Of a DNA stretch of 64,000 bases, positions 2,596 to 61,967 are shown in pieces. The notes beneath the pieces were generated by a model, which was not told the DNA's origin, ran no database searches, and saw only the letters and a list, made by a program, of their open reading frames with translations. The position numbers and the translations under genes are program-made. Numbering within the stretch: position 1 is the first letter of the stretch; each line of letters opens with the position of its first letter. This stretch comes from Chiloscyllium plagiosum (lineage: Eukaryota): NCBI RefSeq assembly GCF_004010195.1, contig NC_057718.1:61773318-61837317 (forward strand), read 5' to 3'.

Positions 2596-3398
2596 ACCAA
2601 AGCGTCACCTACAATCAGACCCCACCACCAGAGGTATATTTCCCTCCCCACCCCTACCAGTATTCTGCAGAGACCACTCCCTCTGTGACTCCCTCGTTAA
2701 GTCCACCCCCACCCCATCCAAGGCCCCAAAAGGATCCTTCCACATACAGAGAGATTTTTCTGCACATCCAAACACCTCATCTACTTGTCCATGGCTCTCA
2801 ATGTGGTCTCCTCTACAGTGGGGAGACAGGACACCAACTGGCAGAATGTTTCAGAGAACATCTCTGGGACACATGCACCAAACAACCCCACCGCCCTGTG
2901 GCTGACCACTTCAACTCCCCCTCCCACTCTGCCAAGGACATGCAAGTCCTGTGCCTCCTCCATCACCAAATCCTAGCCACTTGACATCTGGGGGAAGAAC
3001 GCCTCCTCGTCTGCCTTGGGACCTTCCAACCACACAGCATCAAGGTCAATTTCACACGTTTCCTCATTTCCCTTTCCCCCACCTCATCCCAGATCCAACC
3101 CTCCAACTCGGCATCACCCTCTTGAACTGTCCTACCTGTCCATCTTCCTTCCCACCTATCTGCTCCACCCTCCCCTCGAACCTAACACCAATCTCCCCAC
3201 ATCTCCATCTACCTATTGCCTTTCCAGCTACCTCCCCCACCCCCAGCCCCAACCCCACCCTCCTATTTATCTCTCAGCCCTCTTCCTCCCCACTCCCCAC
3301 ATTTCTGATGAAGGGCTTATGCCTGAAATGTCGATTCGCCTGCTCTTAAGATGTTGCCTGACCTGCTGTGCTTTTCCAGTGCCACACTTTTTTGACAC
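2596..3398 (+). mobile_element. Penelope-like retroelement 3' fragment (GIY-YIG remnant, pyrimidine-rich UTR, terminal repeat)
   Basis: SQCGLLYSGETGHQLAECFREHL...PVADHFNSPSHSAKDMQV is the Penelope GIY-YIG signature (CxxCxxxYIGET...RFREH...PVAxHFN). Confidence 0.85.
3305..3332 (+). ncRNA. Minimal type I hammerhead ribozyme motif
   Basis: CUGAUGA-A-GGGC(UUAU)GCCU-GAAA-UG-UC: both core boxes intact, stem II present, GUC cleavage triplet, loopless stem III. Confidence 0.65.
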
Positions 3399-19078: not shown

Positions 19079-21093
19079 CTAATCAGTTTTTATATCATTA
19101 TTTAACAAGCGCTCACTGTGCCATTTTTTCATGTGTTTTTCGAGGGTACTATACACGCTAAAAGGCATCTGACAAATTTCACATTTGTAAACGTCTTTCC
19201 CCACCTGACCGTGCGTTTTCATATGTCGCGTGAGCTTGCTACTCTGGGCACAGGCGTAGTTGCACAGGTCACATTTGTATGGTCTCTCGCCCGTGTGGCT
19301 TCTCCGGTGGACTGTGAGATTGCTGCAGTTCTTGAAGATTTTGCCGCAAAATTCACATGTGTCACTTCGCTTGCCCTCTTTGGAGCTGGGCCGTCCAGGA
19401 CCAGGTCCAGTGATATGGGGCGTGCTTCCACCACTTCCTGTGCCACTCCGACCTGAGATCCCACCATCCATTTCTCCTGGAGGAGTGGAAAAGCGTAAAC
19501 TTCCATTTTCTGAAGAGTGCTCAGATGAAGTTGCAAAAGGCGATTGTCTGGAGTCTCCAAAGCTGAGGAATGGGTCTTTCATCTGTCGTGAGGCAGCATA
19601 ACCAGCGAGCCACTGGGAGTAAACATTGTCCGTGGGAGCCAAAGGTGCTGATGGCAAGTCAAAGTCTTTCTCAAGTTTTATGCGTTTGGAAAAAGGACTA
19701 AGGGAAGTTGGGCTTCCTAAAATAGGCTTCTTGGATAAACCTCCAGAGGCTGATTCACCTGGAGAGGAACCTCTACCATTGACTGTACCATCATCTGTGC
19801 GATCAGATTCACCAGCAACTGAATCTTCATCATAAGTATCTCTTTGAACTTCAGTTTCAGATGAGTGATGAGTCCGCTTGTGTTTTTCAACAAGAACTTG
19901 GTGAAAGCCCTCACCGTAATGTTGTATTGTATTCATGGTAATGCTGTGCATCACTTCAGGCAAAGATCTCTTCTCCTCTACAGGTCTAGAACTATTCTCA
20001 TGGTGACGCCCACTCTCTAGATTGACACCAAACGCAAAATCAGACCTATTTTCAGTTTCAGGTTCCTCCTCCTCTTCCTCCTCTTCCTCCTCCTCTTCTT
20101 CCTCTTCCTCTTCTTCCTCCTCTTCATCTCCATTTTCTGGAATCATATTGGCATCTGTTTCACTTTTGTATTTGGCTACTGCAGATTTGAGGGCACTGCT
20201 GGCACTGCCAACAAGGTCACTAGTACCCGGTTCAGGAGAGCTTGCGGTGGAAAGGCCATCATCTGACTTGACTGTCATAGGTGAGGACTTGTGCAAGTGT
20301 GTTTTCATGTGTCTCTTTAATTTGCTGGCCTGAGTGCAGGCATGATCACAAAGGTGGCACTTGTATGGTTTCTCACCGGTGTGGCTTCGACGATGCACTA
20401 TCAAATTGCTCTGAAACTTAAATGTTTTCCCACAGAATTCACAAGACTTAGATTTGAGCACAGTTTGGGCAGGAGGTGCTGTGGGCTGGAGGGGTGGGAG
20501 GGGTGGCGTGCTAAGAAATGGGGATTTGTTGCTCGACTGGAATGGTTGCAATAGCCTTTGCATAGGACTCGGACGGTTTGGTGACAATGGCGGAGTGGAA
20601 GTGTTGCCAGCCAACTCTCTAAGTCTCCTAGAGAAATCCATGGATGGTGGCTCGATAGGCATGGAGTTAAGACGAAGTACCCTGTCAAAGGCACTGGTGT
20701 GATGTACAGCCACCATAGCCATCTCCTCAGCACTCAGCCGATCCATTCGATGTGGGTCCAGGTGATGCCGGGGTGGTGGGCTAAACAACGGAGGTGTAGG
20801 GGGAAAGCGGCCTTCTCCAAGCCCTGGGGTTTCCCGTGAGACAGGCCCAGACATTCTCAGTAGGTTGAAAGGACTACTGTCAGCTATGTGAAGTCCATGA
20901 AGAGGAGGCTGAGGAGCACAGTCTGCCCCAAGTCCTGAAGGAATGCCAACCCGGGGGGTTAATGGACTTCCGTGCTCAGTCTCTAAATAAATTCTGAATC
21001 CGTGGGTGTTCTGGGCATGTTGGAGGAGAAACCATGCACTACTGAATGGCTGTTTGCAAGTTGTGCAAGTGTAACTGCTGGGCTCATCCTTTC
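19079..21093 (-). CDS. BCL11A: BCL11A (CTIP1) terminal coding exon, XL-type C-terminus
   Basis: ORF 19079..21109 reads [17 protein letters not shown]...[31 protein letters not shown]...[28 protein letters not shown]...[18 protein letters not shown]. The [19 protein letters not shown] segment and C-terminus match BCL11A rather than BCL11B. Acceptor tttgttttctcttgcag| ends at 21094, exon starts in phase 1 at 21093, TAG at 19081-19079. Confidence 0.97.
20063..20125 (-). repeat. Coding (GAR)21 repeat encoding poly-glutamate
   Basis: 63 nt of mixed GAG/GAA codons between the D and P codons. Confidence 0.95.
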
Positions 21094-22249
21094 CTGCAAG
21101 AGAAAACAAACAATGTCAGTGAGAGGGCAACTGGATGCCAATCTCAACTGCTACGTTCATGCACCTATTTAATGGAAGAAAACTCACTATTCAGAAAAAT
21201 AAAGAGCACTGTGGGACAACTTGATCGAAAAATCAATTACTTTCACACCATTTAAACGGCTGTGAACATTTCATTTTTTATCTGATCAAAACTGCTTAGG
21301 TTACTCCTCCCCTACTTGAATAATCCAGGTGGCAATGGTAATTTTGTTCCCTGCAACAACTGACCAACCTATAGATTTGCTATCCCAGTTCTCTTAGAGG
21401 GAACCTTTCTAAAGTGCAAATCAGACACTAAAATAGAAAGCCATTTTTCTACTCCGATTCCAGATATGTAGATAACAGTTATTAAAATATTTACCAGTTT
21501 AAACACCTCAATGTAAACAATGATCTAATCTCCTGACTTCGCCTATGCAAAATTGTACTGCTTCAGTGAGTAGAAAAAAACGAGAATCTGAGCTATTTTA
21601 TTCAGTCTTCTTTCTCTCCTGAAGACAGTGGCCCATGTTGAGGTATGGCAGAATAGATACTGGTCATCCTCCAGAACCTCCACATATAAAAGAGTCAAGT
21701 GCTGAGCAAAGCTCTGATCAACACTCACCTCCACTAAACCGGGGCTGCTGAAACCTAAGGCAAAAATCTCACCTGAGATCAAAGAACTCAGTTCAGAACA
21801 GGTAATGAACCTGGAAATCTGCATCTATAGGAGTCAGCTGCAGAGTACGATCACCAACAGGATCTTAGAGAGCAATGTATCTAATTCTGACTGAAACAAT
21901 TGATTGGAATTATGTCAATTAGGTCAATTGGCAACCTTAAATTGATGGCAGCAAAGTTTCTTGCATCTTCAGGACAAACCAGTAACTGTTATCCAATTAC
22001 AGAATCACAACTAATATTAGAAACTAACTTGCAAGTTTTGCAAGCCTGAGCTGATTGGGCACGGTTGGTATTCTGCTTGTCGAGTACAACAGAAGGGACA
22101 TGCTGACTGATATGATTCACTGTTTTCTGGGAAGTATGGTTACATATCTGGCATCACACCAACACTGAAATTCATATACCACATTATTCATTTGTGCGGC
22201 AGAACAATTTTTTTTTGTCTTGATGGCAGTATCCTGTTAGTGGTAAATA

Positions 22250-23062
22250 ACACCTGTGTTGCTATCGCATAGTAGTGGTGTGAAACAGCCAGCTTCATCT
22301 GTTGCTCAAACGGTAAGTAGGTACTTGGTCCCACAGATAGGCAAATCATATCAAACAAAACGTTCCTTCAAACAGAAACAAAATACTACAGCTGCTGGAA
22401 ATCTGAATTCAAAACGAAAAATGCAAGAGAAACTCGGCAGATCTAGCAGCATCTCTGGAAAGAGAAACAGAGCTAAGGTTTGATTCAAATGGTTCCAACG
22501 AAGAGTCTTTGAACTTGAAACACTAACTCGGATCCTCTCTCCACAAATGCTGCCAAACCTATTGAGTTTCTCCAGCATTTTCTGCTTTTACTTCAGATAT
22601 CCCTTCAGCTGGTTGAAACAAGTAAGGTACTGGCAGTCCCTAACTAGCCTACACTTGCAAAATTCATAACACATATCTAGCAATAGATGTGAATCCTCAA
22701 TCAGACAACATTTGCTAGATAATCCTGAATGTGTGAGGAATTATACTGGTGATCAATTTAGGATTGTCAGTTGGGCTTGCAGTGTGATACACTTACATGT
22801 ACTGGAAGCTACATATATTAATGTACAGAGCTCTGTTCTTTGCAGACAGAAAGAACACGTACATGCATTGTATTTGGTTCAAAAAATGGGTGTCAGCCAT
22901 TCACTGGTTCATTTCCCACTGCAATCCCCTGACCAATCAACTGGCACTCTCTTCTCACATGGTATAAAGGTTGATTTTCCCCTTGAATTGGTATTCTTGT
23001 CAAGTGTCCTGATGAGTACAAGCTAAAAAACTTTAGACAAAATGTATCTGTTTTCAGCAATA
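22250..23062 (+). mobile_element. Second Penelope-like family, 3' end with degenerate hammerhead; interrupted at 22371-22598
   Basis: SIRQHLLDNPECVRNYTGDQFRIVS...HLHVLEATYI...VLCRQKEHV is a GIY-YIG C-terminus. tgtc-CTGATGA-gtacaagct-aaaa...gaca at 23005-23039. Confidence 0.7.
22371..22598. mobile_element. Palindromic Penelope-derived mini-element (different family)
   Basis: Arms atctgaa...aaaatgcaagagaaactcggcagatctagcagcatctctggaaagaga and tctctccacaaatgctgccaaacctattgagtttctccagcattttc...ttcagat; flanked by gttccttca / atcccttca. Confidence 0.75.
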
Positions 23063-30683: not shown

Positions 30684-31544
30684 TATTTGTATTGGCTGTA
30701 TCTCCTCAGGAGGGTGGAACAATCTTGGCTGTAGGCCCCTCTATTACTACAGTCAATATTATTGCTGTGTTTGACTCATGGAAAGGACAGATGTATTACT
30801 TCAAAGTAATTTTGATGCTCTTTCCCGAACTCTGAATTAAACTTATTTAGAAATGTCATAAAGTAACGACAAATGTATATTTGAGCTTTGGCTCATATAC
30901 AGAATGACAATACTCTAGACACTCAATTAAATTCAAAACCATTTAATGAAGCAATCATTTCAACCTTCAGTATCACTGGGAATTTGTGTGGCTGAATGGT
31001 CCCAGAAATTGACTAAGGTGTCATTATCATCATGTCATGGAGGATTTCTCTTGGTTTCTCCGAATTTCCTTGCACAACCATGCCCAAATGTATCTTATCA
31101 ACTAGACACCATGCCCTATTGCACTCCTCCCATCTGATGCTGGCTGAATTCAGCCAACAATGGGATATCCCAGGATCTTTGGCACGATCACCATATTCAA
31201 AAGGACACAGTGCACCTGATCAAATGCTCTACATAGTGGGAGGGAAAGAAAGAAGACAATCTCCTGAGGCCATAAAGGTGACATGTCCAATGTAAATAAT
31301 TTTTCACATTCCTCCATATATACGCTGTATTCATTTTTCACCATCAGCTGTATTTGTCAGTCTCTGTTAAACCACAGCTTCTGCATCGAAGGAACAGAAC
31401 CTGTCCATCCTTAGCAACACATGATGTTCCAGGGTACAAAGTGTGAAGCGAGCAAATCCTGCATCATGTACAGGCAGTGGGTAAATCACAGGTTGCTGTC
31501 ACTTTGACATCTGGGCTCAATTGTTCCAGGTACCTAGACATTGC

Positions 31545-31749
31545 AAGGAGAAAGTAAGGACTACAGATGCTGGAGATCAGAGTCGAAAAGTGTGGTGCTG
31601 AAAAAGCACAGAAGGTCAGACAGCAGGAGAATCAATGTTTCGGGCATAAGCTGATCCCTGATTAATGGCTTCTGACCAGAACATCGACTCTCCTGCTCTT
31701 CTGATGCTGCCTGGCTGGCTGCGCTTTTCCAGCGCCACACGTTTCAACT
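31545..31749 (-). mobile_element. Palindromic Penelope-derived mini-element (family of 1841-2056)
   Basis: Same arms; hammerhead cores eroded; probable TSD ctagacattgc (31534-31544) / ctaaacaatgc (31750-31760). Confidence 0.8.
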
Positions 31750-32352
31750 CTAAACAATGCTGTTGTATCGCAAATGTTAATGGGATTCATTCATTATCTT
31801 GCATGATTTGGTTAGGTCAGGCATACATGGGGCAAGGGTTTGTCTAAGGTTCACAAAGAATGTATTACTTAGTGTGTTTCAGCTCCAGTATTTGGGGGAC
31901 AGTGTAGGAATGTTGCTCTCTCTCCCAGAATGAATCCCACCTACTCCTGGTGTGATTGTAGCATTTTCAACTCCATTGTGCACTTGATATTTATGATGAA
32001 GGCAACAGCAGCTAACTCCTTGAAGAATGTATCTCTGGTTCAGCTCTCCATCTTGATGAACTCCCAAAAGTAAACATTCCCTTCGTAGTAGCATCCCCCA
32101 GCCCCCAAAAGAATCACCCCATTGAGTCCTGATGGCTGCAGGACCCCCAAGTAGGAAATGAGATGCTGTTAATCCAACTTGTGCTGAGCCTCGTTGGAGC
32201 ACTAAAGCAGGTCCAAAATGGAAATACTGGCCAGGAAACATGGTAATGTGAGGAAGTAGCAGGTATTAGCTGTGTTTCTTCAGCAATTTCTGTTCAGATT
32301 TCCAGCACCCGCAGTTCTTTATTTTGTTTACTTGCTTGCAATGATGTCACAG

Positions 32353-32495
32353 GCAGGATTGTGTGTGGATCTGACACTCTTCCCATTGGACACCATAAAA
32401 ACCAGACAGGGATTCAACAGGGATTCTACAACGCTGGAGGGTTCTGTGGGATTTATGGTGGTGTTCCTTCTGCTGCCTTATGTCTTCACCTAATG
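32353..32495 (+). pseudogene. SLC25A26: Fragment of the mitochondrial S-adenosylmethionine carrier gene, frameshifted
   Basis: [18 protein letters not shown], frameshift, QQGFYNAGGFCGIYGGVPSAAL..SSPN versus recalled human [48 protein letters not shown]; contains the carrier motif PxDxxKxR. Confidence 0.88.
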
Positions 32496-32819
32496 GCTGG
32501 AGCAGTGTGAATCGGAACTCCTGGTGGCAGCAATGCCGGGTTCTCCTGAAGTATTACTGTCATTGTTTCTGTTCCCAGAGTGGGACTCCTTCAGGAATGA
32601 AACAGAACACCATCCACACATCTTGAAGAAGCCCTGAAGCCATGTTTTCGACCCCAATTTGAACAAAAGATGAACTCTTATTTAAGTAATTTCTTTTCAT
32701 CCTTATTTTAAATCAAATGGCGCTGGATTGTGGCGACAAAACACTTTCCACTGTATCGTTAAGATATACTTGACAATAAATCATTCACTCATTCGTTCAA
32801 TAAATCATTCATTCATTCA
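32496..32819 (+). mobile_element. Non-LTR retroposon 3' end with AATAAA + (CATT)n tail
   Basis: acactttccactgtatc...acttgacaataaatcattcactcattcgttcaataaatcattcattcattca. Confidence 0.7.
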
Positions 32820-35800
32820 CTAGCATTTGTAGTCCCCCAATAGGCCATCTACACCATCTTTCTAAGTTTTCATCCGCTCATTTCACCTGCCCAACCACAG
32901 ACATGTCAAGTAACATGTCAGGCATAGTACTTCATTATCTCCCCTATCATAGCCAGGGTGATGCTTATATTGAATGACTCTCCATCCATATTCTATCACA
33001 TTCCCACATATATATTGAAATTCCTCCTTCCATAACTATTGTAATCCCTTTTGCATCCCTGCATTCTGACTCCAATTCCCCCAGCCACCTCCCAACAGCA
33101 CCTCCCAACAGCACTGGCCCCTGGTAATCCATCACTTCGCCCACTTTGAATTTTAGTGGATGGACTAACTGTGGATTATCCCTGGATTGACTTGTACTGA
33201 CAGCTCCAAACAATGAGTGACCTGAACCCAACTGACATCTCGACAGCTTCCCCACTCTGTTCCTTCGGCTTCTCGGATTGGCTGTACTGGAACTAAAGGG
33301 TGCTGATGCAGTGCAGAACTCCGATGTTGACCATCCTGACAACTGACTGACCATGATCAAGCCCTTGGACTGATATCTGATGCTGTTCTTGACATACTAT
33401 GCCAAGACACCCTACCTAACAGGTGACACCCTGCACGTGACTGAGGTCTACTCCCTTTCTCTTTGAATCATTGCTGTTTTCTGATAGTACATGCAGTATG
33501 CTTGACACAGACTTGACGAGCACATGATGCATATGTCAGATTTAACATAGCATGATGCCGTACAGTAACATCCCTTTGATACTGCTGACAACCATAACAA
33601 GCTGCCTGGCATTTTTGTCTGTCATAAAGAGCAAGACATAAATACTATGATCCTTTTAAGATGTAACCAAGTGGCCAACACACAAAAGGCCATGAGCATG
33701 TAGGTAGATACAAAATATGTGAATACTAAGACAGCAAATAAGCAGCCCTGGGATGCAGCTTGGACCAAAATGTTCTTCACACAAAGTTCTCTTGCAGCAG
33801 CTTTCCAAAGACAGGTGCTGGTGTGCTCCAAAGTGCAGCATCAAAGAGCAGGAATGTACTGTAAGTGGTTCAAAGTTATGCCATGATGATGCAATGGGGC
33901 TGGTGGATGTCTGTGTATGTGGGGAGTATGGGAAGCACACAGAGTTTGCCTTGAGATGCTTGTATTGGGTGTCCAAGATGGAGGTCCAGGGGAGCAAGCA
34001 GCGAGCCGGAGTCAACAATTACCTGCTCAGACTTCCATTTCGGAAATTCTCAGTTTCTGTTTCTTTCTGCCAATTGGGAGAATGGAAGGCTGCATATTAA
34101 TAAAGTGAGATTAGGTAATACTGAAGGTGAGAGTGAGTAATAATCCTAGTTCATCAGGCTCTTGCTACTCATTAGCAAGAAATGCATCCTGATATCTGAG
34201 ACTTAGTTGGAAAATACAACATTTTGGGCTTGACATTAAGAACCGCTTTGTTTAATATCTCACCCAAGTTTTCACAATTTCTTGCCATAGTCCACATCAT
34301 TTAGGGCCTGGAAAGATTCTGCCAATAGTTATCACCCAACAAGTTAAATCTCTAATGGTCATGTAGTTAATAGCTACTCAGGGCCTACTTCACAACCAAA
34401 ATTAAACAAGGCTTAACACCAAACTTTACAGATATTTATTTCTTAACATGCTGTGGTAATGATGCAACATGCATCTATGTCTGACACTGAAATAAGTTTA
34501 ATGCAGTTTTTTGCCTTTTTAATGCCTTTGTGTGTTTTCTGATCCTGTGGAAGAGTCAAAAGGAAGCAGCACTTCTTTTCGAAATCTGCTTTCCGTCCAA
34601 TGAATGTTGGCCTCTGGCACAACTGAGGTATCGAATCAGATTGCTTCATAATACATCTTGCCAGTGGCAGCTAGGACTACCACATTATGGCTACTACCAG
34701 TATCAATATACCAAAAAAATAATTATTCTGCATAGGTCACCCTCAGTCCACTAAGTAAGTTACAAAATTATATTAATATTATGTATGTCTTATTTTCTGG
34801 TCAATATGTTATTATGGCTTTATTACTTCTAACTTAAATCAAACTATACAGTGAAATATTGCAGCATCTTCCACAATATGGATGTTAGACTAGCAGTAAC
34901 AAGTTGAAAGTCTTTACCAGCCTCTGAAAAATTTTAGGATCACATTAATGTCCAAAAAAAAAGGAAGCTTCCATTTCACTAATGCTCCAAATCTATGCCC
35001 TGAAATGCATTCCAAAGAAAGAAATCTTCACAACTACACCAATGCTGCCCTCACCCCCATACAATGTCAATCATAGCACTTCATCAGCTGCTTATGTATC
35101 GTTTGATATTAAACCCTTGCCAGACCCCATATGTATTTCATTCAGCAAAAGAAAAGCTCCCGTGAAAGGAACTCAGAACCTGCCACTGGTCTAAAACTCT
35201 GCAAAATGGAGCAACGTTGCATCATTTCTTATTGCTACAATTGTTGATGCCGTGATACACATTATCCCATTATTTAGAAATTATAGACATTTCTTGCTGT
35301 TAGAAACCTGCCGTGGCTAGTTATTAAACTCTGTGGTTATTACTGCTTTAGATATGATGTATTTGCTCCCATCCACACCCTCAGTCAACTACTTTTGTGT
35401 AAATCTTCGGTGAGAAATTAAGGATTAATGCTTCTAGATCTGCATTACAGATTCCATCTTTATTTGAGAAAAAACGCCCAAAATTCCAAGAAAGCATCTG
35501 ATTCAAACAGCTGAACATGGAATTGGAATCTCTCTCAAATCCTGTGGTTATGAAAGGATGCCATTGTGTTTCATCTGCCCATTCTAGTTAACCTCAGGTT
35601 GACATTCCTTCCATAATCTTCTCTGGGTAACCTAAGGAAGTTATTAGGAATAATCTTCCTAATGGGGGCACAGCCCAGTCAACAAGCTAGCTTGAGAAAA
35701 GTGCATGGCATTAACGGTTCTCACCTTTAAACTTTTACTCTTCCATTAAACATCTGTCTGACATTTTGTTTTGTCATATCTGTTCACTATTAACCTGTAT

Positions 35801-36134: not shown

Positions 36135-37470
36135 TATTAGTGTGTTACAGCACAGAGACAGGCCCTTTGGCCCAATCTGGTCCATGCCAACTAAAATATC
36201 CATCCAGGTAACTCCATTTCCCTGCACTTGGCCCATGTCCTTCTAAACCTTTCCTATTCATGTATTTGCCCAAATGTGTTTTAAGTGTTGTTAATGTACC
36301 CACTTTAACCACTTCCACTGGCAGGTCATTTCATATGTGTACTACCCTCTGTGTAAAAATGTTGCTTATCAGGTTCCCTTTTATTCTTTCCCCTCTAATC
36401 TTAAACTGATGTCCTCTAGTCCTCAATTCCCCAACTCTGAGAAAAAGACTGAGTGCATTCACCCTATCTATGCCTCTCATGATCTTATACACCTCTATAT
36501 GATACCCCCTTAGTTTCCTACACTCTAAAGAAAAACATCCTATCTTGCCCAACCTCTCCCTACAACTCGGACCCTTGAGTCCTGGCAACATCCTCATAAA
36601 TTTCTTCTGAACTCTTTTCAGTTTAATAACATCCCTCCTATAGCAAGGTGATCAAAACTGAACACAATATTTCAAATGCGGCCTCACCAATATCCTGTAC
36701 AATTGCAATAGAACTTCTCAACTTCTATACTCATTGTCCTGACTGATGAAGGCCGTTGTGCCAAAACTCTTCTTCACTGCCCTGTCTACCTGAGACTTCA
36801 CTTCCAGAGGACCCTGCACCTGAACTCCAAGATCCTTCTGTTCCACTACACTCCTTAAGGCCCTACCATTCACCATGAACCCCCTATCTTGATTTGACTT
36901 TCCAAAATGCAAGACCCCACACTTATCTATATTAAGCTTCATTTGTCATTTCTCAGCTTACTTCCCCAGCTGATCAAGATCCTGTCGCAATTTCTGAGAA
37001 CCTTCCTCACTCTCCGCAATACCCTCCATTTTAGATCATCTGCAAACTTACTAATCATTCCTTATACATTCCCATCTAAATCATTGATATAAATAACAAA
37101 CAGGAATGGGCCTAGCACCGACCCTTGAGAGACACACCACTAGTCATAGGCCTCCAGTCCGACAAGCATCCTTCCACTATTACCCTCTGCTTTCTACCAT
37201 CAAGCCAATTGTGTATCCAATTTGCCAGCTCCCCCTGGATCCCATGCGAGCGTTCCAGATCAGCCTACCATGTGGAACCTTATCGAAGGCCTTACTGAAA
37301 TCCACATAAACTACCGCCCTGCCCTCATCAAGCTTTCTGGTCACATCATCAAAGAACTTTATCAAAATTGTGAGGCATGATCTCCCACAGATAAAGTCAT
37401 GCTGACCACTTCTTCTCCTGTCGTTCCAAACGCATGTATATCTTATCTCAAAATCTTCTCAAGTAACTTT
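36135..37470 (-). mobile_element. CR1 LINE (RT to 3' end)
   Basis: VVYVDFSKAFDKVPHGRL, MKLNIDKCGVLHFG, KLRGYHIEVYKIMRGIDRV. Confidence 0.92.
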
Positions 37471-39964: not shown

Positions 39965-40619
39965 GGATAGGATAGGATAGTAAAGGTGGTGTTTGGTATG
40001 CATTCCTTTATTGGTCAGAGCATTGAGTATGGAAGTGGAGAAGTCATGTTAGCGCTGTACAGTTAAACCACTTTTGGAATATTGTATGCAATGCTGGTTT
40101 CCCTCCTATAGGGAGGATGTTGTGAAACTTGAAAGGGTTCAGAAAAGATTTGTAAGGATGTTACAAGGGTTGGAGGGTTTGAACTATAGGGAGAGGCTGG
40201 ATAGGCTATGGCTGTTTTCCCTGGAGTATCAGAGGCTGAAGGGTGTCCATGTAGAGGTATACAAAATCATAAGGGGCATGGATAGAGTAAATGCATAGGC
40301 TCTTTTTCCTGGATTGGGGGAGTCCAGAACTAGAACGCATAGGCTTAGGGTGAGGAGGAAAGATATAAAAGGTACCTAAAGGACAGTTTTTTCACGCAGA
40401 GGATGGTGTGTTTATGGAATGAGCTGCCAGAGGCTGGTACAACAGCTTTTAGATTACAACATTTAAAAAGGCATCTGGGTGGGTATATGAATAGGAATGG
40501 TTTAGCAGGATATGGGCCAAATGCTGACAAATGGGACTAGATTGAACTAGGTCGGCATGGACGAGTTGGACTTGAGGGTTTGTTTCCATGCTGTACATCT
40601 CCATGACTCTATGACTCTA
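39965..40619 (+). mobile_element. CR1 LINE 3' fragment
   Basis: LEYCMQCWFPSYREDVVKLERVQKRF...; tail atgactctatgactcta. Confidence 0.92.
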
Positions 40620-41580: not shown

Positions 41581-44500
41581 GAGTCATAGAGATGTACAGC
41601 ACGGAAACAGACCCTTCAGTCTAACCTGTCCATGTCAACCAGATATCCCAACCCATTCTAGTCCCACCTGCCACCACCTTGCCCATATCCCTCCAAACCC
41701 TTCCTATTCATATACATATCCAGACTCCTTTTAAATGTTGCAATTGGACTAGCCTTCACCACTTCCTCTGGCAGCTCATTCCATACACGTACCACCCTGT
41801 GTGTGAAAACGTTGGCCCTTAGGTCTCTTTTATATCTTTCCCCTCTCACCCTAAACCTATGCCCTCTAGTTCTGGACTCCCCACCCCAGGGAAGAGACTT
41901 TGTCTATTTATCCTATCCATGCCCCTCAGGATTTTATAAACTCTATAAGATCACCCCTCAGCCTCTGATGCTCCAGAGAACACAGCCCCAGCCTTTTCAA
42001 CCTCTTCCTATAGCTCAAATCCTCCAACACTGCCAACATGCTTGTAAATCTTTTCTGAGCCTTTTCAAGTTTCACAACATCTTTCCGATCAGAAGGAGAC
42101 CAGAATTGCACGCAATATTCCAAAAGTGGCCTAACCAATGTCTTGTACAGCCGCAACATGACCTCCCAACTCCTGTACTCAATACTCTGACCAATAAAGG
42201 AAAGCATGCCAAACGCCTTCTTCACTATCCTATCTACCTGCAATTCCACTTTCAAGGAGCTATGAGCCTGCACTCCAAGGTCTCTTTGTTCAGCACCACT
42301 CCCTAGGACCTTACCATTAAGTGTATAAGTCCTACTAAGATTTGTTTCCCAAAATGCAGCACCTCGCATTTATCTAAATTGAACTCCATCTGCCACTTCT
42401 CAGCCCATTGGCCTATCTGATCAACATTCCATTGTAATCTGAGGTAACCTTCTTCGCTGTCCACTACACCTCCAATTTTGATGTCTTCTGCAAACTTACT
42501 AATTATACCTCTTATGCACACATCCAAATCATTTATATAAATGACAAAAGGTCCAGCACCGATCCTTATGGCACTCCACTGGTCACAAGGCTCCAGACTG
42601 AAAAACAACCCTCCACCACCACCACCTTCTGTTTTCTACCTTTGAGCCAGTTCTGTATCCAAATGGCTAGTTCTCCTTGTAGTCCATGATATCTAACCTT
42701 GCTAACCAGTCTCCCATGGGAGTTTTGTCGAACGCCTTACTGAAGTCCACAAGATCACATCCACCACTCTGCCCTCATCAATCCTCTTTGTTACTTCTTC
42801 AAAAAACTCAATCAAGTTTGAGAGACATGATTTCCCACACACAAAGCCATATTGACTATCCCGAATCAGTCCTTGCATTTTCAAATACATGTACATCCTG
42901 TCCCTCAGGATTCCCTCCAACAGCTTGCCCACCACCGACGTCAGGCTCACTGGTCTAGAGTTCCCTGGCTTGTCCTTACCACCCTTCTTAAACACTGGCA
43001 CCTCATTAGCCAACCTCCAGTCTTCTGGCACCTCACCTGTGACTATTGTTGGTACAAATATCTCAGCAATCACTTCCTTAGCTTTCCAGAGTTCTAGGGT
43101 ACACCTCATTAGGTCCTGAGGATTTATCCATTTTTATGTGTTTCAAGACATTCAGCACTTCCTCCTCTGAAATATGAACATTTTTCATGATGTCACCATC
43201 TATTTTCTTACATTCTTCAATGTCCTTTTCCACAGTAAACACTGATACAAAATACTTATTTAGTATCTCCCCCATCTCCAGTGGCTCCACACAAAGGCCG
43301 CCTTGCTGATCTTTGAGGGACCCTATTCTCTCTCTAGTTACCCTTTTGTCCTTAACGTATTTGTAAAAACCCTTTTGATTCTCCTTAATTCTATTTGCCA
43401 AAGCTATGTCGTTCCCCTTTTGCCCTCCTCATTTCCCTCTTAAGTATACTCCTACTGCCTTTCTCCTCTAAGGATTCATTCAATCTATCTTGTCTATACC
43501 TGATACATGCTTCCTTCTTTTTCTTAACCAACCCTCAATTTCTTTAGTCATTCAGCATTCCCTATATCTACCAGCCTTTCCTTCCACCCTAACAGGAATA
43601 TACTGTTTCTGGACTCTTGTTATCTCATTTCTGAAGGCTTTCCATTTTTCACCAATCCCTTTACCTGCGAACATCTGCCCCAACCAGCTTTTGAAAGTTC
43701 TTGCCTAATACCGTCAAAATTAGCCTTCCTCCAATATCGAACTTCAACTTTTAGATCTGGTCTATCCTTTTCCATCCCCTTCCAATTTAGGTGCAATAGG
43801 TCCTTCTTGTACAGGTCACTTCTACTCAGAAGAGATTTCAACAATCCAAAAATGTGAGTATTTCTCCCAAACACCTGCTCCTCAGCCATGCATTCATCTG
43901 CTTTAACCTCCTATTCCTACCCTCACTAGCTCGCAGTTCGGTTTGTAGTACATTTCCCTGAGAATCCATCACCCCCTAATTTTCCAAAACAGCATACCTG
44001 ATTGAAATGGGAATAGCCACAGAACACCCCTGCACTACCTGCCTACCTCTCTTACCTTTCCTGGAGTTAACCCATCTATGTGACTGTATCTGCAATTTTT
44101 CTCCCTTCCCATAACTGCCATCCATCACATCCCCTTCCTCTTGTAAATCCCTCATTGCCTCTAACTGTCTCTCCAACAGATCCATTCGATCTGATAGGAT
44201 TCGCAACCAATGGCATTTATTGCTCAGCAACAAAGTCTCCCTAAACTCCCACATCTGATAAGAAGAGCATATCGCTCTATTAAAGGCCATTTTTTGCATC
44301 CTTCAATTTACAAACAGAAAATAGCGCTGTCTTATTCATCTATAAAATACTGCTACAGGCTAACTTAATACTTAAGGCTTATATTTTTAATCAAGAGACA
44401 TATCTCAATAAAACATATAATCACGAAAGAACCCACTCTACTCACTACTGCAAACTTACTGTAAAGCCACACTTAAAAATATTCACTTATCTGTTTCTGT

Positions 44501-49270: not shown

Positions 49271-50854
49271 GAGAATGTGATCACTTATGTTGCTGTCCAA
49301 GGTCAGTCAACTTGGAAATTACTGGAGATAAATGCTGGAGCCATCCTACATCATTTAGTTCCAAGACTGAAATATTATCTCTTCATTCAAACCAAGCAAC
49401 AATTTTAAAATATAGAATCAACTATTTTATCACAACTGGTCTCCATGCAGTGCAAAGAAACCTGGGGTAAGTTTAGGTTGCAGCAATTGTAATGAGATCA
49501 GCCAGGTGGACCTTATAGAATTTGAGTTTCCTGATTGGCCTAGGTTAATAGTCCAAGAGAGCCCTTGCTGACAGCTTTAGTGCTGACATGTGATGCTTCC
49601 CCATATAGTAGCGGGATAGCGTTGGCTCACAGATGCTTCCTTAACTTTGGTTGATGCAGAGTGCAAATATGTCCAGATAGAGATGGAAGGTTTGGCAGTC
49701 ATCTTTGGTATGAGGAAGTTCCACCAATACCTTTATGCACATAAATTTGTAATAGTAATGGACCACAAACCTCTCTTAGGGCTACTCAAAGAGGAAACGC
49801 CATGCCACCTATACCTTCGGATCAAATTCAGCAGTGGGCTCTCATCTGAAGCACATGCAATTACAAGTTGGAACACTGTCCGGGAGGCCAAGTAGTAAAC
49901 GAAGATGCCTTGAGCCACCTCCCACTGGCAAATACATCAGCAGTGATGCTGCCATTGGAAGAATCCATTCTGTTTTTAAACTTTCTGGACACCCTTCCAG
50001 TCACCACTGACAATATCAGACTGTGGATGCAAAAAGATCTGGTCCTGGCAAAACTAAAACAGCCGGTGGTGATGGGGGCAACAAAAGGGACATCACAACC
50101 AGAATTGAAACCTTTCTGGAACTGGCTAGACCAGGTCACCATACAGGACAGCATTTTATTAGGGAGAGCAAGAGTGATTCCACCAGTGTCATCTAGGGGT
50201 GTCCAAACTGAAGATGCTGGCGAGAGGTTATGTATGGTTGCCAGGATTAGATGTAGACATAGCCAATTTGGTGGAGCAGTGCCCAGAGTGCCAACAAAGA
50301 CAAATTACCACCAGCAATTCCCCCACATTTGTAGAAATGGCTCGGTAAACACTGGACTGAGATATACATCAACTCTTTCATGGGCTGAATATTTTTAATC
50401 ATTTGATGCCCGAAGGTGCTTGGACATGCACAGAGTTCATTTGTCAAACAGTGGGATGATGACAGAAAAGCTCTGAGCAACAGACAACTGGCCATCATTT
50501 ACCAGCAAGGAATTTGAGTGCTTCTTAAAGTCAAACAGCATTTGGCATATAAGAACACCTCCATACCATCCTCGTCCAATGGTCTGGTGGAAAGAGCAGT
50601 CCAAACTTTAGAGACAAGCTTAAAGGAACAGCCTATAACTTCATTTGATACCAAACTGACCTGGTTCCTGTTTGACACAAGATTCCTCAAGCAAGAAAAG
50701 CAGTTTCCTTCAAGGGATGACGTTTGGTGCTTAAACCATGAAAATGGCCTTACATGGGTAAAAAGCATGATCAACGTGAGGTCAGGTCCCATGATGTACA
50801 AAGTTTAGGTAAAAATCACACATCAGGTTATAGTTCAACAGGTTTATTTGGAAG

Positions 50855-51384: not shown

Positions 51385-54095
51385 TACTTTCAAATAAGCC
51401 TGTTGGACTAAAAGCTAGTGTTGTGTGATTTTTAACTTTGTCCACCCCAGTCCAAAACTGGCACCTCCACATCAAAGTTCAGGTAGGTGAGGCAGTCCTG
51501 AACAAGCAAATGAATCACAAAAGCTGCAAGCTCAAGCAGGGCAGGAGCAAACCATATTCAGCCCCTTAGAACATCCGACAAAACTGTCAAAATCCATGGA
51601 ATCCATCACCCTTCCAGCTAGCATTGAAGAAACCTCAGATTCTGAGATGGACACAGCAGATGTTGCAGCCTTGATGCCTTTACTGCCAAAGAGGAGCTTG
51701 AATTTCGTCCAAGACACTCCAAGCGCAAGAGATGGGCTATGGTCTGGAACACACCGCCTGAGTCAGTGAAACCGGACCCAGTGCAAAAACGGCCCAGGAC
51801 AGGCTACAGGAAAATGAACAGGCCTATGTCCCCAGATGTAGAGGCAGAGAAATGTAGTGATTGGAATGAGGTCAGCCAGGTGTAGCTTGTGGAATACAAG
51901 TTCCCTGATTGCAACTGTTAATCTAGTCTAATAAACAGGAGTGTCAGAGGTTCTGTTTACTCTAAGAGTTGGCTCTGAGGAAGCTGGACTAGTATCAAAT
52001 ACTATGCACATGTAAGGGATACCAACCTCTGTGGAGTTGTTTCATAGATGACCATTTGGAAGTAGATCACCCTAACAGAAGAGCAGCATTAAATGCAATT
52101 AAGGACAGGTCTGAAGACTGGACTATCTCACCCAAAGAGTCAGGGTGCCAAAATATAAACAGAATTTCATCTTATGCTAGATCAACTCTAAAGAAATAGA
52201 AATCTAAAACCAATTTATTCTATATCAAGCAGTCATAAATTCAACATATTCTTCCATGTCTATAAAATCAAAATTTTTCTGTCAGAAAGTAGTTTCAAAA
52301 GATTTTGTTTCAAATTTGAATCTGCAGTTACAGCAAAATAATGAAAATGAATGCAACTCCGAAGCAAATTGGATCTCTAATGTATAAGGGCATTAGTTAG
52401 TACAATCTGGATTAATCCTGATTAATACTACACTGCACCTTTGCTATTGTGATCCTACCATCCTGTTTCATCTTAAATAAAGATTATAGCTTTTAAACGG
52501 GGGCACACTAGACCGTAGATTAACAGGCTCACATTTCTTACAAGTAATGAGAATGCCTAGTGATTAAACCTGGTCTAATATGCTTAAACTGCTGGGTAGT
52601 AGCATCTGTTTCACCCACAGGACTACATTTTTATTGTTGGATTATACAGCGTCACATGAGCCAGCTCATGAGATCCAATTAGTTGCTAAGGAAAGCGTTC
52701 AATATCATTCGTTTCACATTTTGCTCCCTTAAAGTGGATCTGGTCTCTAAGAGGCTGCTAAAGTCGGAGTTTGTTAGATGTAATGATTAGCTGCAGCTCG
52801 ACACTTGAAGCGTTGGAGGCGAATGGCAGTACAGCTTTGCTCTAATTTGCAGATCCTCAGTTAATTAGAAAGTCCTCAGATTCACACAGATGTGGGTCAC
52901 TATTGACAGTTCTATCTTTGATGCTTCCTGTGTGACAGTTGTTGAGCTGACCTTCCCTAAAATGGCAGAACTACCCAGAATTTTACAGTGTGGGGAATTC
53001 AATCATTTCTACCTACTCTAACAGGAAGCTACTGGCAAGGTTACTACACTGAGCAATGCTCAACTTCCTTATGTTAAACAAACACTAATGACATCTGTGC
53101 TGCCCTTAAAACTAAAACTGGTCACAGAAAAGTTCCCGGAAATTTTGAAAAAAAACTTTGTTTTTGCATGTGTGGTAAAATAATTTCCTTCAAGGACGTA
53201 ACGTTTTTTGTCTCCAATCTTGTAGTTTGCTTATTGTTGTTGTGAAGTTTTCAATACATGACAAGAAATTTAAAATACCTCATTGGTACTGTATACCAGA
53301 TACTATATTATACTATACCAGATCACCTCCACAATCTTATTCAGGGTCATCGATTTATGGTGACTGAATAAGTCAGATTTCAGAACTTTAACTGATGTTT
53401 TATGGATTACATTTTGCGCTTCCACCTGCTAATAATTACAGCTAGTGGCTCAAGGTGTTGAATTAAGTCCAATTCTATTTTTCTTTCATGTGATTGTAGA
53501 ATCCTTATTGATGCTTTGGAAATTACATTCTGATAGTCTGTTCTTTATTTCTACTTGTAATATATAAAAACCATTATAATCAAGAAAGAACACACATCTG
53601 AAAGTTAAATATTTTGCATAAAAGTTGTTAAATAAAAGAATGTCACATAACCCAATGTCCATTCAGATCACACATCCTTAATCACTATCCAAAATTGTGC
53701 CACATGATTTTCACATTAAGTGAAAAAAAGACAGATCAATTTTCTGGCAAGAATTTACTTATTTTTTAAAACAAGATTCACCATATGGTGCACAGTACAA
53801 ACAGCAGCACTCCACAGAAATCTGAAAATGAATCTCAAATCAATAATATAATTAAGAGGGCTCTGGAGACAAGTATACACTAACTGATCATTGGAGGGGA
53901 AAAGAGTATCTCTGATGACAAATATAAACTGCCACAGTTTCTGGGCATAATGAGTTATGGTGGCAGCCATATACCACTGGAGCCTTTAAGGGTTCAAATA
54001 TCAAAACAGGCTGACTGACCAATTGTCAGTGTTAGAAATGCAGGTCCCTTAAGGGTAAAACAAAGCAGCTCCCATGTTGACTGAGAGCAGGTGAT

Positions 54096-54297
54096 TAGAG
54101 TGGTGCTGGAGAAGCACAGCAGATCAGGCAGCATCAGAGAAGCAGGAAAAATCGACGTTTTGGGCAAAAGCCCTTCATCAGGAACGATTCCTGACGAACA
54201 GCTTTACCCAAAACAGATGCTGCCTGACCTGCTGTTCTTCTCCAGCACCGCTCTAAACTTGACCCTAATCTCCAGCATCTGCAGTACCCACTTCCAT
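54096..54297 (+). mobile_element. Palindromic Penelope-derived mini-element (family of 1841-2056)
   Basis: Perfect 15-bp TSD ctgagagcaggtgat (54081-54095, 54298-54312); inverted arms centred at about 54186. Confidence 0.9.
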
Positions 54298-59420: not shown

Positions 59421-61882
59421 TCCCACCTCCAACATTTTGACTCCTAAAACAAGTTTCCACCATTGTCACATTTGTTTTGGTCAACTACTCACTTATGGAC
59501 ACTCAGAATGATGAGCCAAATCTGGTGCAGAGGAATTCCTTGGATTATAACTTTAAAACAATAAGCTATTTTGTTTAACTTTGTAAGTGGATTGTAAGTG
59601 ACTTTGTTATCTTTGGACCATTAGTCTCCAGTTTCCATTTTCAAGCCAGGGCCAGTTTGGAGTAATGCAGACTTAAGGGCCACGCTTATCTGACACAAAC
59701 CTTTGTTCACAAGGGTTATTCATCTATCATTGCATCATAAAGGGACTGCAATATGCTGACTGAATCCCTAACCCAATCATTTGCTAAATTTCTGCTTTTT
59801 AGAGATTATGTTCTTCCCTGAGGGCAGCAGAGAATGTTAGCCTCAGTACTCTTTGCACCGCTGCATATGATGTGCATGTAAACATCTTGGGTGATCACTG
59901 TCCTTCAATAAAGTAAATAGTCAGAAATCATAACAGATTGAAAGAGACCACAAGGCTGCTCTGCAACATAATTAAATTTGTTTCAAGTGCATTGTACAGA
60001 ATTTGACACCCGCGCATCAAAGTTACTTAGATGTTCTTCAATCCCTCTTTTTCTGCTACGTGTTTTAGTTTCAATACAGCAGCTGCAGCTGGCTTCTTGC
60101 AGCAAGCTGCTGATTTCTTTGCCATCTTGTCACAAATGACTTAAGTGGGTATTCTCTGTTGAGCCTGGGCCTAAAGAAGTGCAGAAGCAACCCCCCTTGG
60201 CCTGACTCAGTAAAGGCATTTAGAGCCCTGGCAGAGAGGAGTTGGTGGATCAAGGCACCTCTGGACCTTTCAGAGATGCCAATTCCTGGGAATCTGCCTC
60301 TCATTCCATTGCCCTGTTGGTGCATAATAGCACCTCCCTCACCCCTTGAGGGGATGGAAAACCTGGAGGGTGGGTAAGGGCCCTCAACCCACTCTTACCT
60401 AGCTAGTGAGTGATGCATTTTTGGCTTTAACAATACAGTGAAGGTCAATGTACATTTCCAAGAGATATGCACAACTTATTGTTGTGCTGGACCTGGCTCT
60501 CCATTTCAGCTGACAGCTTGTCCATGGAGACAGCCATGCACTTTCATGCCAGTGCCTCAATGTCAGATTCCATTGCCCTTTGCCACAGGTTGCGTATGAT
60601 CTCTAGCACTTCTGCCAGAGATTTTCCAGCTTGCCTTTGTATATCCAAGTATACATTAATGGCCCAGACCAGAGGTTCACAAATACTGGACTCAGCTAGG
60701 TGGCCTTACCTACTTGTTCATTAAAATTTGGAACTTAGCCACACATGAATATGCAATAAGTTGAGAAAAAAATAATCTTTTCAGAAAGCTAGTCTGCTAC
60801 CAATGGTCATACCTTCCACCTTTAGGTCCACTTCTACACCATCTCAGGAACACAAGATTCCAATGATGGTCTCATTTTATTTGGTCTTCTACTCTCCATT
60901 AATCCTCCAAGTGTCAGCCATCTCTTGTAGTTGCAGGCCTGTGTTACCAGAATGTGACTCCAAGCTTATTCTAGATAGATTACCCACAGAGCTGAATGTC
61001 TCTGCAGAGACAGAGAGTGAGGGGGAAGGTTTTGAATATGCTTCCTCTGAGGTTCGTGACAGTTCCTCCTCAGAGGTGTGCTATAAGGTGCTGGCAGAGT
61101 TGTATTCGTGGGATGGGACTTTCCTTATTTTGGTCCTGGCTTTGGACTGGGATCCAGAGAATGCATAGAAAAACAATTTTTTTTAATGTCCCAAGCTGCC
61201 ACCCTTACCAAAGTTTTTATTAAGATGTAGGTGCTTGACATACAACTGTGGGCAACAATTCAGAAGCTCTCTCACTAGCAGGCTTGCAGCAAAAGCATGT
61301 TCTCTTTGCTCTCCCCTTAGCTCCACTGCCTGCTCAAAGGAGTTGACACTATGTGCATTCTTCTCCTGCAGGAGGAGGAAAGAATGATATGGCATTAGAT
61401 CCATGAGCATTACAGGTATTTGGCGTCCATCGATTGATACAGATAGAGATGTCACTCTCCAGTGTTGATTGCCCATCTGCATTGCTATTAAGATCATATG
61501 GATGCATTTAAATATTAAAGGGTTCTGACTGAAAGGTGGCTCACTAGCACCAAAGAGCTGAAGTTGATAGAAATCAATGAAATGTTGTAGGATGTGTCTG
61601 CCTGTGAAGTCATTTTTGTGGTGATGCCCTTGTTCAATGCAAGCCTTTGGTGAAAAGCTGCCAGATTATATATTCTCCTAATTGTACTGAAAGGTCAGTG
61701 AGCTGCTGGATCTTGTAACTCCTGTCACGTTTTAGGTGTGAACAGTGTGAGATTTGCAAGAGTCAGCAGCACAATAGCGCAGGTGCTACATTAGTATCTG
61801 CAATGAAGACATTAATTGCACGAGGATTCTGATCAAGAATCCCGACACCCAATCTGGTATGGCAATCTTATAATTCTAACTA

Positions 61883-61967
61883 GATTAGAGTGGTGCTGGA
61901 AAAGCACAGCAGGTCAAGCAGCATCCGAGGAGCAGGAAAATCGATCGGGCAAAAGCCCTTCATCAGG
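61883..61967 (-). mobile_element. Single Penelope terminal-repeat arm fused to a SINE
   Basis: ttagagtggtgctggaaaagcacagcagg...gggcaaaagcccttcatcagg; the hammerhead GAAAC segment is deleted. Confidence 0.8.

Follow-up and report, generated by a model that had tools for sequence, protein, structure and literature searches.

A SLC25A26 exon fused to a microsatellite-tailed repeat end in Chiloscyllium plagiosum, most likely exon trapping in a non-L1 form

A 64,000-nucleotide stretch of Chiloscyllium plagiosum DNA (here, the window) carries a piece of the carrier gene SLC25A26 that stops where an exon stops and continues into the 3' end of a multi-copy repeat. This chimera is real, was seen as a single dead copy and breaks at the exact end of the exon; we regard it as most likely a non-L1 variant of exon trapping. 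With somewhat better than even confidence, we propose that splicing joined the exon to the end of an old retroposon on the sense strand and that the product was then retroposed with 5' truncation. The parts of the chimera are as follows.

32352..32495, plus strand: decayed copy of SLC25A26's second coding exon (tblastn, parent contigs, a human variant and database open reading frames)
32406..32427, plus strand: templated duplication (acagggattc) causing the first frameshift (repeats at 32406-32416 and 32417-32427; comparison with parent contigs)
32481..32488, plus strand: about 4 clustered substitutions together with a 1-nt loss, the second frameshift (by-eye comparison with the parent loose end)
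32495..32496, plus strand: junction, the exon end followed by GC in place of a GT donor (window; bridged by a contig of run X1)
32496..32564, plus strand: about 69 nt with no assigned relative (only own-locus contigs at 32486-32548)
32565..32773, plus strand: body of a repeat of retroposon type, multi-copy, with an approximate left edge (contig alignments)
32758..32774, plus strand: weak predicted 6-bp hairpin before the tail (folding, -4.4 kcal/mol, z -0.33)
32774..32819, plus strand: duplicated CAATAAA+(CATT)n tail (self-comparison of the window)

The carrier-coding fragment reported in a first-pass annotation is real, and it starts at 32352, one base before the position given there. Its parent, the second coding exon of SLC25A26, is exon 3 in NM_173471.3 numbering. 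A tblastn search with 121 database carriers gave 119 HSPs at E<1 in one frame and 89 in a second over 32200-32400, with carriers of the SAM-carrier family matching in both; the best E among the matches listed was 1.9e-7. The Pfam family Mito_carr reached E 0.022 at the exon piece, below the Pfam cut-off. In each of the four sequence runs compared, one parent-type SLC25A26 contig aligns over about 32352-32480. Three of these runs are guessed to be RNA (X24, organism A; X18, organism B; X20, organism C), and in all three the parent contig differs from the window by 9-10 substitutions and one gap. At their 5' loose ends these three contigs carry the last part of exon 1 followed by the first 11 nt of this exon, absent from the window. 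Truncation of the copy therefore falls within the exon, and the copy has no exon-exon junction; it runs from the twelfth base of the exon to its last. For want of such a junction, an RNA intermediate is something that we infer. The 3' loose end of the parent contigs is 16 nt long and closes with CCTAATG.

Two frameshifts interrupt the copy. The acagggattc duplication, rightly placed at a frameshift in the first-pass annotation, puts 10 nt in place of 11 parent bases, and five of the substitutions and the gap relative to the parent contigs fall within it. The second cluster lies directly before the junction. Outside these two clusters, private substitutions in the copy number about 3 over roughly 118 nt (2.5%, 95% interval 0.5-7%), two of them deduced from totals and not from the differences listed. 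At 32386 and 32391 the window agrees with the organism C parent and differs from the parents in organisms A and B; both sites are therefore later changes in the A/B gene, and the copy is older than those changes. It probably predates the split of organisms A/B from C, and it is presumably without function.

Only this exon of SLC25A26 is represented. No later exon was found in the 64-kb window by tblastn with carriers, and the single exon piece shows none of the features of a processed pseudogene (parent exon-exon junction, 3' UTR, poly(A)). A likeness of 32548-32598 to SAMC residues 151-167 had E 4.8 and was rejected. No tail resembling the in-frame continuation of the copy occurs in 203 carrier sequences (best local score 36), and a search of that continuation against 1.84 billion protein representatives gave one match, to a tandem-repeat protein, which we judged to be chance. 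We also noted a sturgeon protein labeled 'SAMC-like, partial' (P0134) that reads GSFPN-GGCIF in place of -AAAFF; from its sequence, it is possibly a decayed paralog changed at the same junction.

Homology to SLC25A26 breaks off with CCTAATG (32495), and GC follows directly, so the abrupt stop and missing GT described at first pass are both present. Several observations agree with the statement, made in the same annotation, that this is an exon end. The human variant c.190+4A>G, in the accessible text of PMC9239748, places a donor after c.190 in an exon numbered 3 there, and c.190 opens the codon that follows ...FPN. We considered 120 of the 169 short database proteins found, most of them in rows with no species name, and 77 contain GSFPN. 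Sixty of the 77 continue with G and then K, E, T, N or M, as when a G|GT donor is read through; another 15 have the spliced continuation (AA..), and 2 have neither. On the 5' side of the exon, Q or K precedes the AGG start in 29/41 such rows, as an AG acceptor gives. The parent contigs end exactly at CCTAATG in all three RNA-guessed runs, a weak hint of an exon boundary. Conservation and contig ends thus point to 32495 as a SLC25A26 exon boundary in the shark as well, and this end matches a splice donor position, a feature of splice-mediated 5' transduction. The parent contigs in X24, X18 and X20 cross the exon 1/2 junction and stop at the exon end; shark SLC25A26 may have a common alternative 3' partner or a retained intron at this point.

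An alternative offset reading, possible from the sequence, puts the break 8-9 nt into the following exon, exon 3 by coding count. After one extra G, the first 9 nt of the region at 32496 agree at five of seven fixed positions with Ala-Ala-Ala-Phe, with which exon 3 starts; AAAFF follows in 69 of 71 full-length GSFPN rows. An equal match occurs at 2.8% of window positions and at 10/131 nearby positions. These bases could be a trace of microhomology priming on spliced mRNA, for which they are suggestive only.

The roughly 320 nt after the junction had been called unrelated sequence. This description holds for no more than about 69 nt: from about 32565 to 32819 (about 32822 in X1 alignments) the sequence is a multi-copy repeat, its left edge taken from depth bins and two joints. 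The 69 nt could be a more diverged part of the repeat, captured source intron or resident BCL11A intron. Of the 318 contig pieces placed in X1, nearly all lie on about 32565-32822, and up to 82 contigs share one difference; relatives are present in all three RNA-guessed runs, and likeness to the repeat body is 82-85% in the six longest of the non-self pieces listed for X1. The repeat is multi-copy and interspersed and ends in a short tandem repeat in place of poly(A), both features of a stringent LINE/SINE 3' end. The first-pass description of a retroposon-type 3' part with no poly(A) is therefore apt, and the repeat has the same orientation as the exon. Exon and tail lie on one strand with the exon 5' of the tail, as in splice-mediated 5' transduction.

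The duplicated tail, also correctly recognized at first pass, consists of 21 nt at 32774-32794 and again at 32798-32818, 24 nt apart and 95% alike, and it holds the sole run of at least three CATT units in the 64-kb window. There is no poly(A) in the chimera. A target-site duplication was not found: the two ends have no exact 5-7-mer or near-exact 8-15-mer in common, except TTTGT away from the boundaries. By eye, and uncounted, a loose likeness (TCAC(T)AG) can be seen at the two ends. The predicted hairpin is not above chance, folding of three pieces having given z -0.74, -0.33 and -0.21. The repeat copy is decayed, and several of its differences from the majority fall in 32748-32770, near the tail. 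In two X1 contigs of the repeat family, AATAAA is followed by an A-run where (CATT)n would stand (loose end at 32804), which indicates a family with variable tails. The tail motif had no match in viral contigs; two scans of metagenomes gave 0 and then 24 loci and prokaryote genomes gave 6, and since none of these 30 loci resembles the window, all are chance. Judged by its sequence, the repeat would fit a stringent-type LINE or SINE 3' end as reviewed in the accessible parts of PMC3747384, PMC8665684 and PMC6274825.

The chimera is not confined to a single data set. Of the 24 runs listed, 20, which come from 9 studies, contain all or part of the stretch; one is flagged as a possible source, and no RNA holder is listed. 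A contig of X1, which is not that run, spans 32318-32679 with 0 differences and bridges both junctions, so the chimera is not an assembly artefact. A contig of X18 (organism B) covers 32318-32515 with 0 differences, only 20 nt of it beyond the exon end, and a piece of 189 nt in X20 (organism C), 97% alike over 32634-32822, is probably the ortholog. Organisms A and B hold the exon piece with its 5' junction, organism C holds the tail part, and no empty site was seen. The locus is inherited.

Our contig comparison covered 4 of the 24 listed runs. Among the contigs listed for these four, which show presence and not absence, there was no second copy of 32496-32548, no sibling chimera and no junction RNA. 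At 80% likeness, 32486-32548 is covered only by own-locus contigs (X1, X18), with no cover in X24 and X20; X1 contigs have holes even over their own locus (32680-32725, 32880-32920). The suggestion that this might be a multi-copy gene-capturing retroposon gains no support from these contigs. The X1 parent-type exon contig (32352-32480) has a word depth of 259, against 17-25 for own-locus contigs, a figure that we do not take as copy number; the run may bear RNA, or the exon may be amplified elsewhere with another 3' partner.

The surroundings of the chimera include a host gene and the end of a second repeat.

19079..21095, minus strand: host context, last exon of BCL11A (open reading frame 19079-21115, PDB matches, acceptor near 21095)
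32293..32329, plus strand: left flank, the end of another repeat outside the chimera (82% over 38 nt to 22370-22407, reversed)

The best PDB matches of open reading frame 19079-21115 are to BCL11A. About 11 kb separate this last exon from the chimera, which is upstream of it on the strand opposite to BCL11A and likely sits in the preceding intron; nine short motifs used as queries located no earlier BCL11A exon in the 64-kb window. The left-flank repeat is presumably Penelope-like. One fold-back repeat occurs in several copies, 70-88% alike and in both orientations (1836-2057, 3301-3391, 31548-31751, 54093-54293, 61882-61967), which we take to be Penelope-like terminal repeats. Decayed LINE fragments with reverse-transcriptase-like frames, which we assume to be CR1-type, lie at 36135-37406, 39971-40609 and 41581-43428. 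These LINE fragments do not carry the tail of the chimera, and the tail motif was found once in the window. A 182-aa frame at 49850-50398 reads, in our estimation, as a decayed LTR-retrotransposon pol segment. In the left flank, 32325-32352 is pyrimidine-rich with CAG at the first base of the copy, an acceptor-like context on the plus strand; this CAG is probably chance, as its G is common to the parent exon. Rfam gave 0 matches in 31400-33900, and a bacterial promoter/terminator scan, irrelevant to this locus, was at chance level.

The two parts of the chimera look different in age. The repeat part differs from the majority of its relatives at 10 to 16/131 sites and from the deepest family contig at 27/178 (depth-weighted, among the differences listed). 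Differences in the exon part number 3/118, 7/134 or 14/144, depending on how the clusters and the A/B changes are treated. A one-sided Fisher test gave p<0.05 in 4/6 countings (range 0.0002-0.098). The repeat part (12-15% from relatives) is 2-5 times more diverged than the exon part and, from these comparisons, looks older than the exon copy (about 3-5%). Such a gap fits exonization of a decayed intronic repeat, and equally a repeat that was already resident.

We propose the following sequence of events. An old LINE/SINE-type 3' end would have lain in sense orientation in the intron after the exon, or would have met the pre-mRNA in trans. The exon donor would then have been spliced to a cryptic AG at most about 69 nt before the recognizable repeat; we infer splicing because the exon end is exact and the GT is missing, both of which are observed. 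A LINE reverse transcriptase could have primed on the AATAAA-(CATT)n end, with one slip accounting for the 21-24 nt that are duplicated, and copying would have stopped 11 nt short of the exon 5' end, where the copy is indeed truncated. Exon and repeat would thus have arrived together. The copy has two frameshifts and presumably has no function.

In its favor, splice capture covers the exact exon end, the absent donor, the common strand and the 5' truncation by one event. The age gap is as expected if an already decayed repeat was exonized, and, by analogy, RAP1GDS1/L1PA2, SVA_F1 and pt_SVA_D6 would be precedents with the same anatomy as far as the accessible accounts of them go. Other observations count against splice capture. 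The +1 offset of the exon-3-like 9 nt is balanced by the 1-nt loss before the junction, which fits microhomology with spliced mRNA better than a splice, and the age gap is just as compatible with an older repeat already in place. No SLC25A26 exon-exon junction is present in the copy. The decayed tail, with its differences at 32748-32770 and hairpin z of -0.33, would be awkward for a stringent LINE enzyme. Finally, two mutation clusters in a copy that is otherwise little diverged have the look of error-prone repair synthesis.

These same observations shape the strongest alternative, which we consider possible though unlikely: the repeat was resident in the BCL11A intron, and a piece of spliced SLC25A26 mRNA was later inserted just upstream. 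Insertion, tailless or templated, could have been by microhomology-primed reverse transcription or break repair, with the end at the exon boundary due to chance or to priming at the start of exon 3. Two events have a higher prior than splice capture and account readily for the age gap, for the templated duplication and the mutation cluster beside the junction, and for the lack of a target-site duplication and of poly(A). The organism C contig, 97% alike over 32634-32822, suggests that the repeat is probably old at this place. The exon-3-like 9 nt, alike at 5/7 fixed positions, would also fit, but this match requires one extra G and one substitution and has a local chance of 8%. Two coincidences weigh against a history of this kind: a random mRNA break would fall within 1 nt of the exon end in an estimated 2% or so of cases, and a same-strand retroposon tail would lie within about 330 nt downstream in an estimated 4% or so.

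A template switch during reverse transcription seems improbable to us. Synthesis would have begun on the repeat RNA, continued for about 320 nt and then switched to SLC25A26 mRNA, at exon 3 or slightly within it, giving a U6/L1-type or Buzdin-type chimera. The common strand, the 3'-terminal tail, the 5' truncation and the possible microhomology at the junction are as expected, and the accessible text of PMC5499810, PMC5470649 and bioRxiv 10.1101/2025.02.02.635956 describes chimeras of this sort. However, the parts should then be of equal age, and an older repeat part, 2-5 times more diverged, argues against a switch from an active element; the six longest non-self X1 pieces listed are only 82-85% alike, and an exact exon end is not expected. 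Capture of unspliced or genomic sequence, with the exon, the opening bases of its own intron (in which GT would have become GC by decay) and a repeat 69 nt into that intron, is very unlikely: G|GC is one change from G|GT and the copy holds no exon-exon junction, but the repaired donor would carry a T at +3, which is seen in 0/60 read-through open reading frames, the 5' side is unlike the first 11 nt of the exon, and no inverted arms surround the piece.

If splice capture is the correct reading, it bears on how host sequences are copied in genomes of this type. CR1-type recognition is said to limit host retrocopies, a point on which Suh (2015) is cited. In the accessible text of PMC5470649, CR1-type LINEs need their own 3' end, and host mRNAs are rarely copied as a result. 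Splicing of a host exon onto a LINE-type tail is one way round this requirement. In cartilaginous fish genomes, 14,081 retrocopies have been counted (bioRxiv 10.64898/2026.06.26.734816, available part); single-exon, poly(A)-less copies would probably escape standard retrocopy pipelines. We found no report of a shark host exon spliced to a microsatellite-tailed element in the literature searched, a scope that lay outside most subscription papers, Repbase and supplements. As one dead copy with a conjectural mechanism, the chimera is a lead for a genome-wide count and no result by itself. A bolder and rather doubtful idea is that old, microsatellite-tailed retroposon ends in shark introns act as exon traps, licensing host exons for stringent-LINE retroposition without poly(A), and that the SLC25A26 exon was amplified in this way more than once. 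Such amplification would account for the branch of RNA contigs at the exon end in three runs and for the 10-15-fold depth of the X1 exon contig.

Several known systems resemble this chimera, as far as the accessible parts of their descriptions show. Recognized 3' ends of CR1, L2 and Rex1 LINEs and SINEs are described as a hairpin followed by a short tandem repeat (PMC3747384, PMC8665684, PMC5499810, PMC6274825, PMC5470649); PMC7245038 is a further paper cited beside these known kinds. Like them, the shark repeat is a multi-copy 3' end that closes in a short tandem repeat with no poly(A). Unlike them, it has a hairpin that is not above chance and no linked reverse-transcriptase frame, and it may be a SINE tail. 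The platypus snoRNA-RTE chimera, a small RNA head on an RTE tail present in up to 40,000 copies (cited in PMC5499810), is likewise a host RNA piece on a LINE-related tail, whereas the shark case is an mRNA exon in one dead copy.

The closest counterparts, within the text available, are primate. For RAP1GDS1, exon 2 is reported to have been joined by splicing to a cryptic acceptor that lies 15 bp upstream of an intronic L1PA2, with retroposition following, and six human mRNA/L1 chimeras end at donors, with trans-splicing proposed for most cases other than RAP1GDS1, which have no intronic source (bioRxiv 10.1101/2025.02.02.635956). As in these 5' chimeras, the SLC25A26 exon ends at a splice donor and lies in sense orientation 5' of the retroposon. 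The partner differs, being a short, decayed, microsatellite-tailed shark repeat in place of a near-full L1, and, in contrast to the human chimeras, there is no poly(A), no target-site duplication and one copy seen, with neither a source nor an acceptor found among the contigs of the four runs. SVA_F1 (MAST2 exon 1) and pt_SVA_D6 (STK40 exon 1), described in the accessible text of PMC6139936 as exon-trapping subfamilies of 84-94 copies, also join the 3' end of a host exon to a non-autonomous retroposon. There, coincidence with the exon end is taken to argue for splicing even where no acceptor can be rebuilt, and the same argument may be made here. The captured first exons of SVA_F1 and pt_SVA_D6 serve as promoters, whereas the shark piece is an internal coding exon, 5'-truncated and frameshifted, with no evidence of spread. 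Because it has neither poly(A) nor a target-site duplication, the chimera falls outside the L1/SVA class, although its way of working may be the same.
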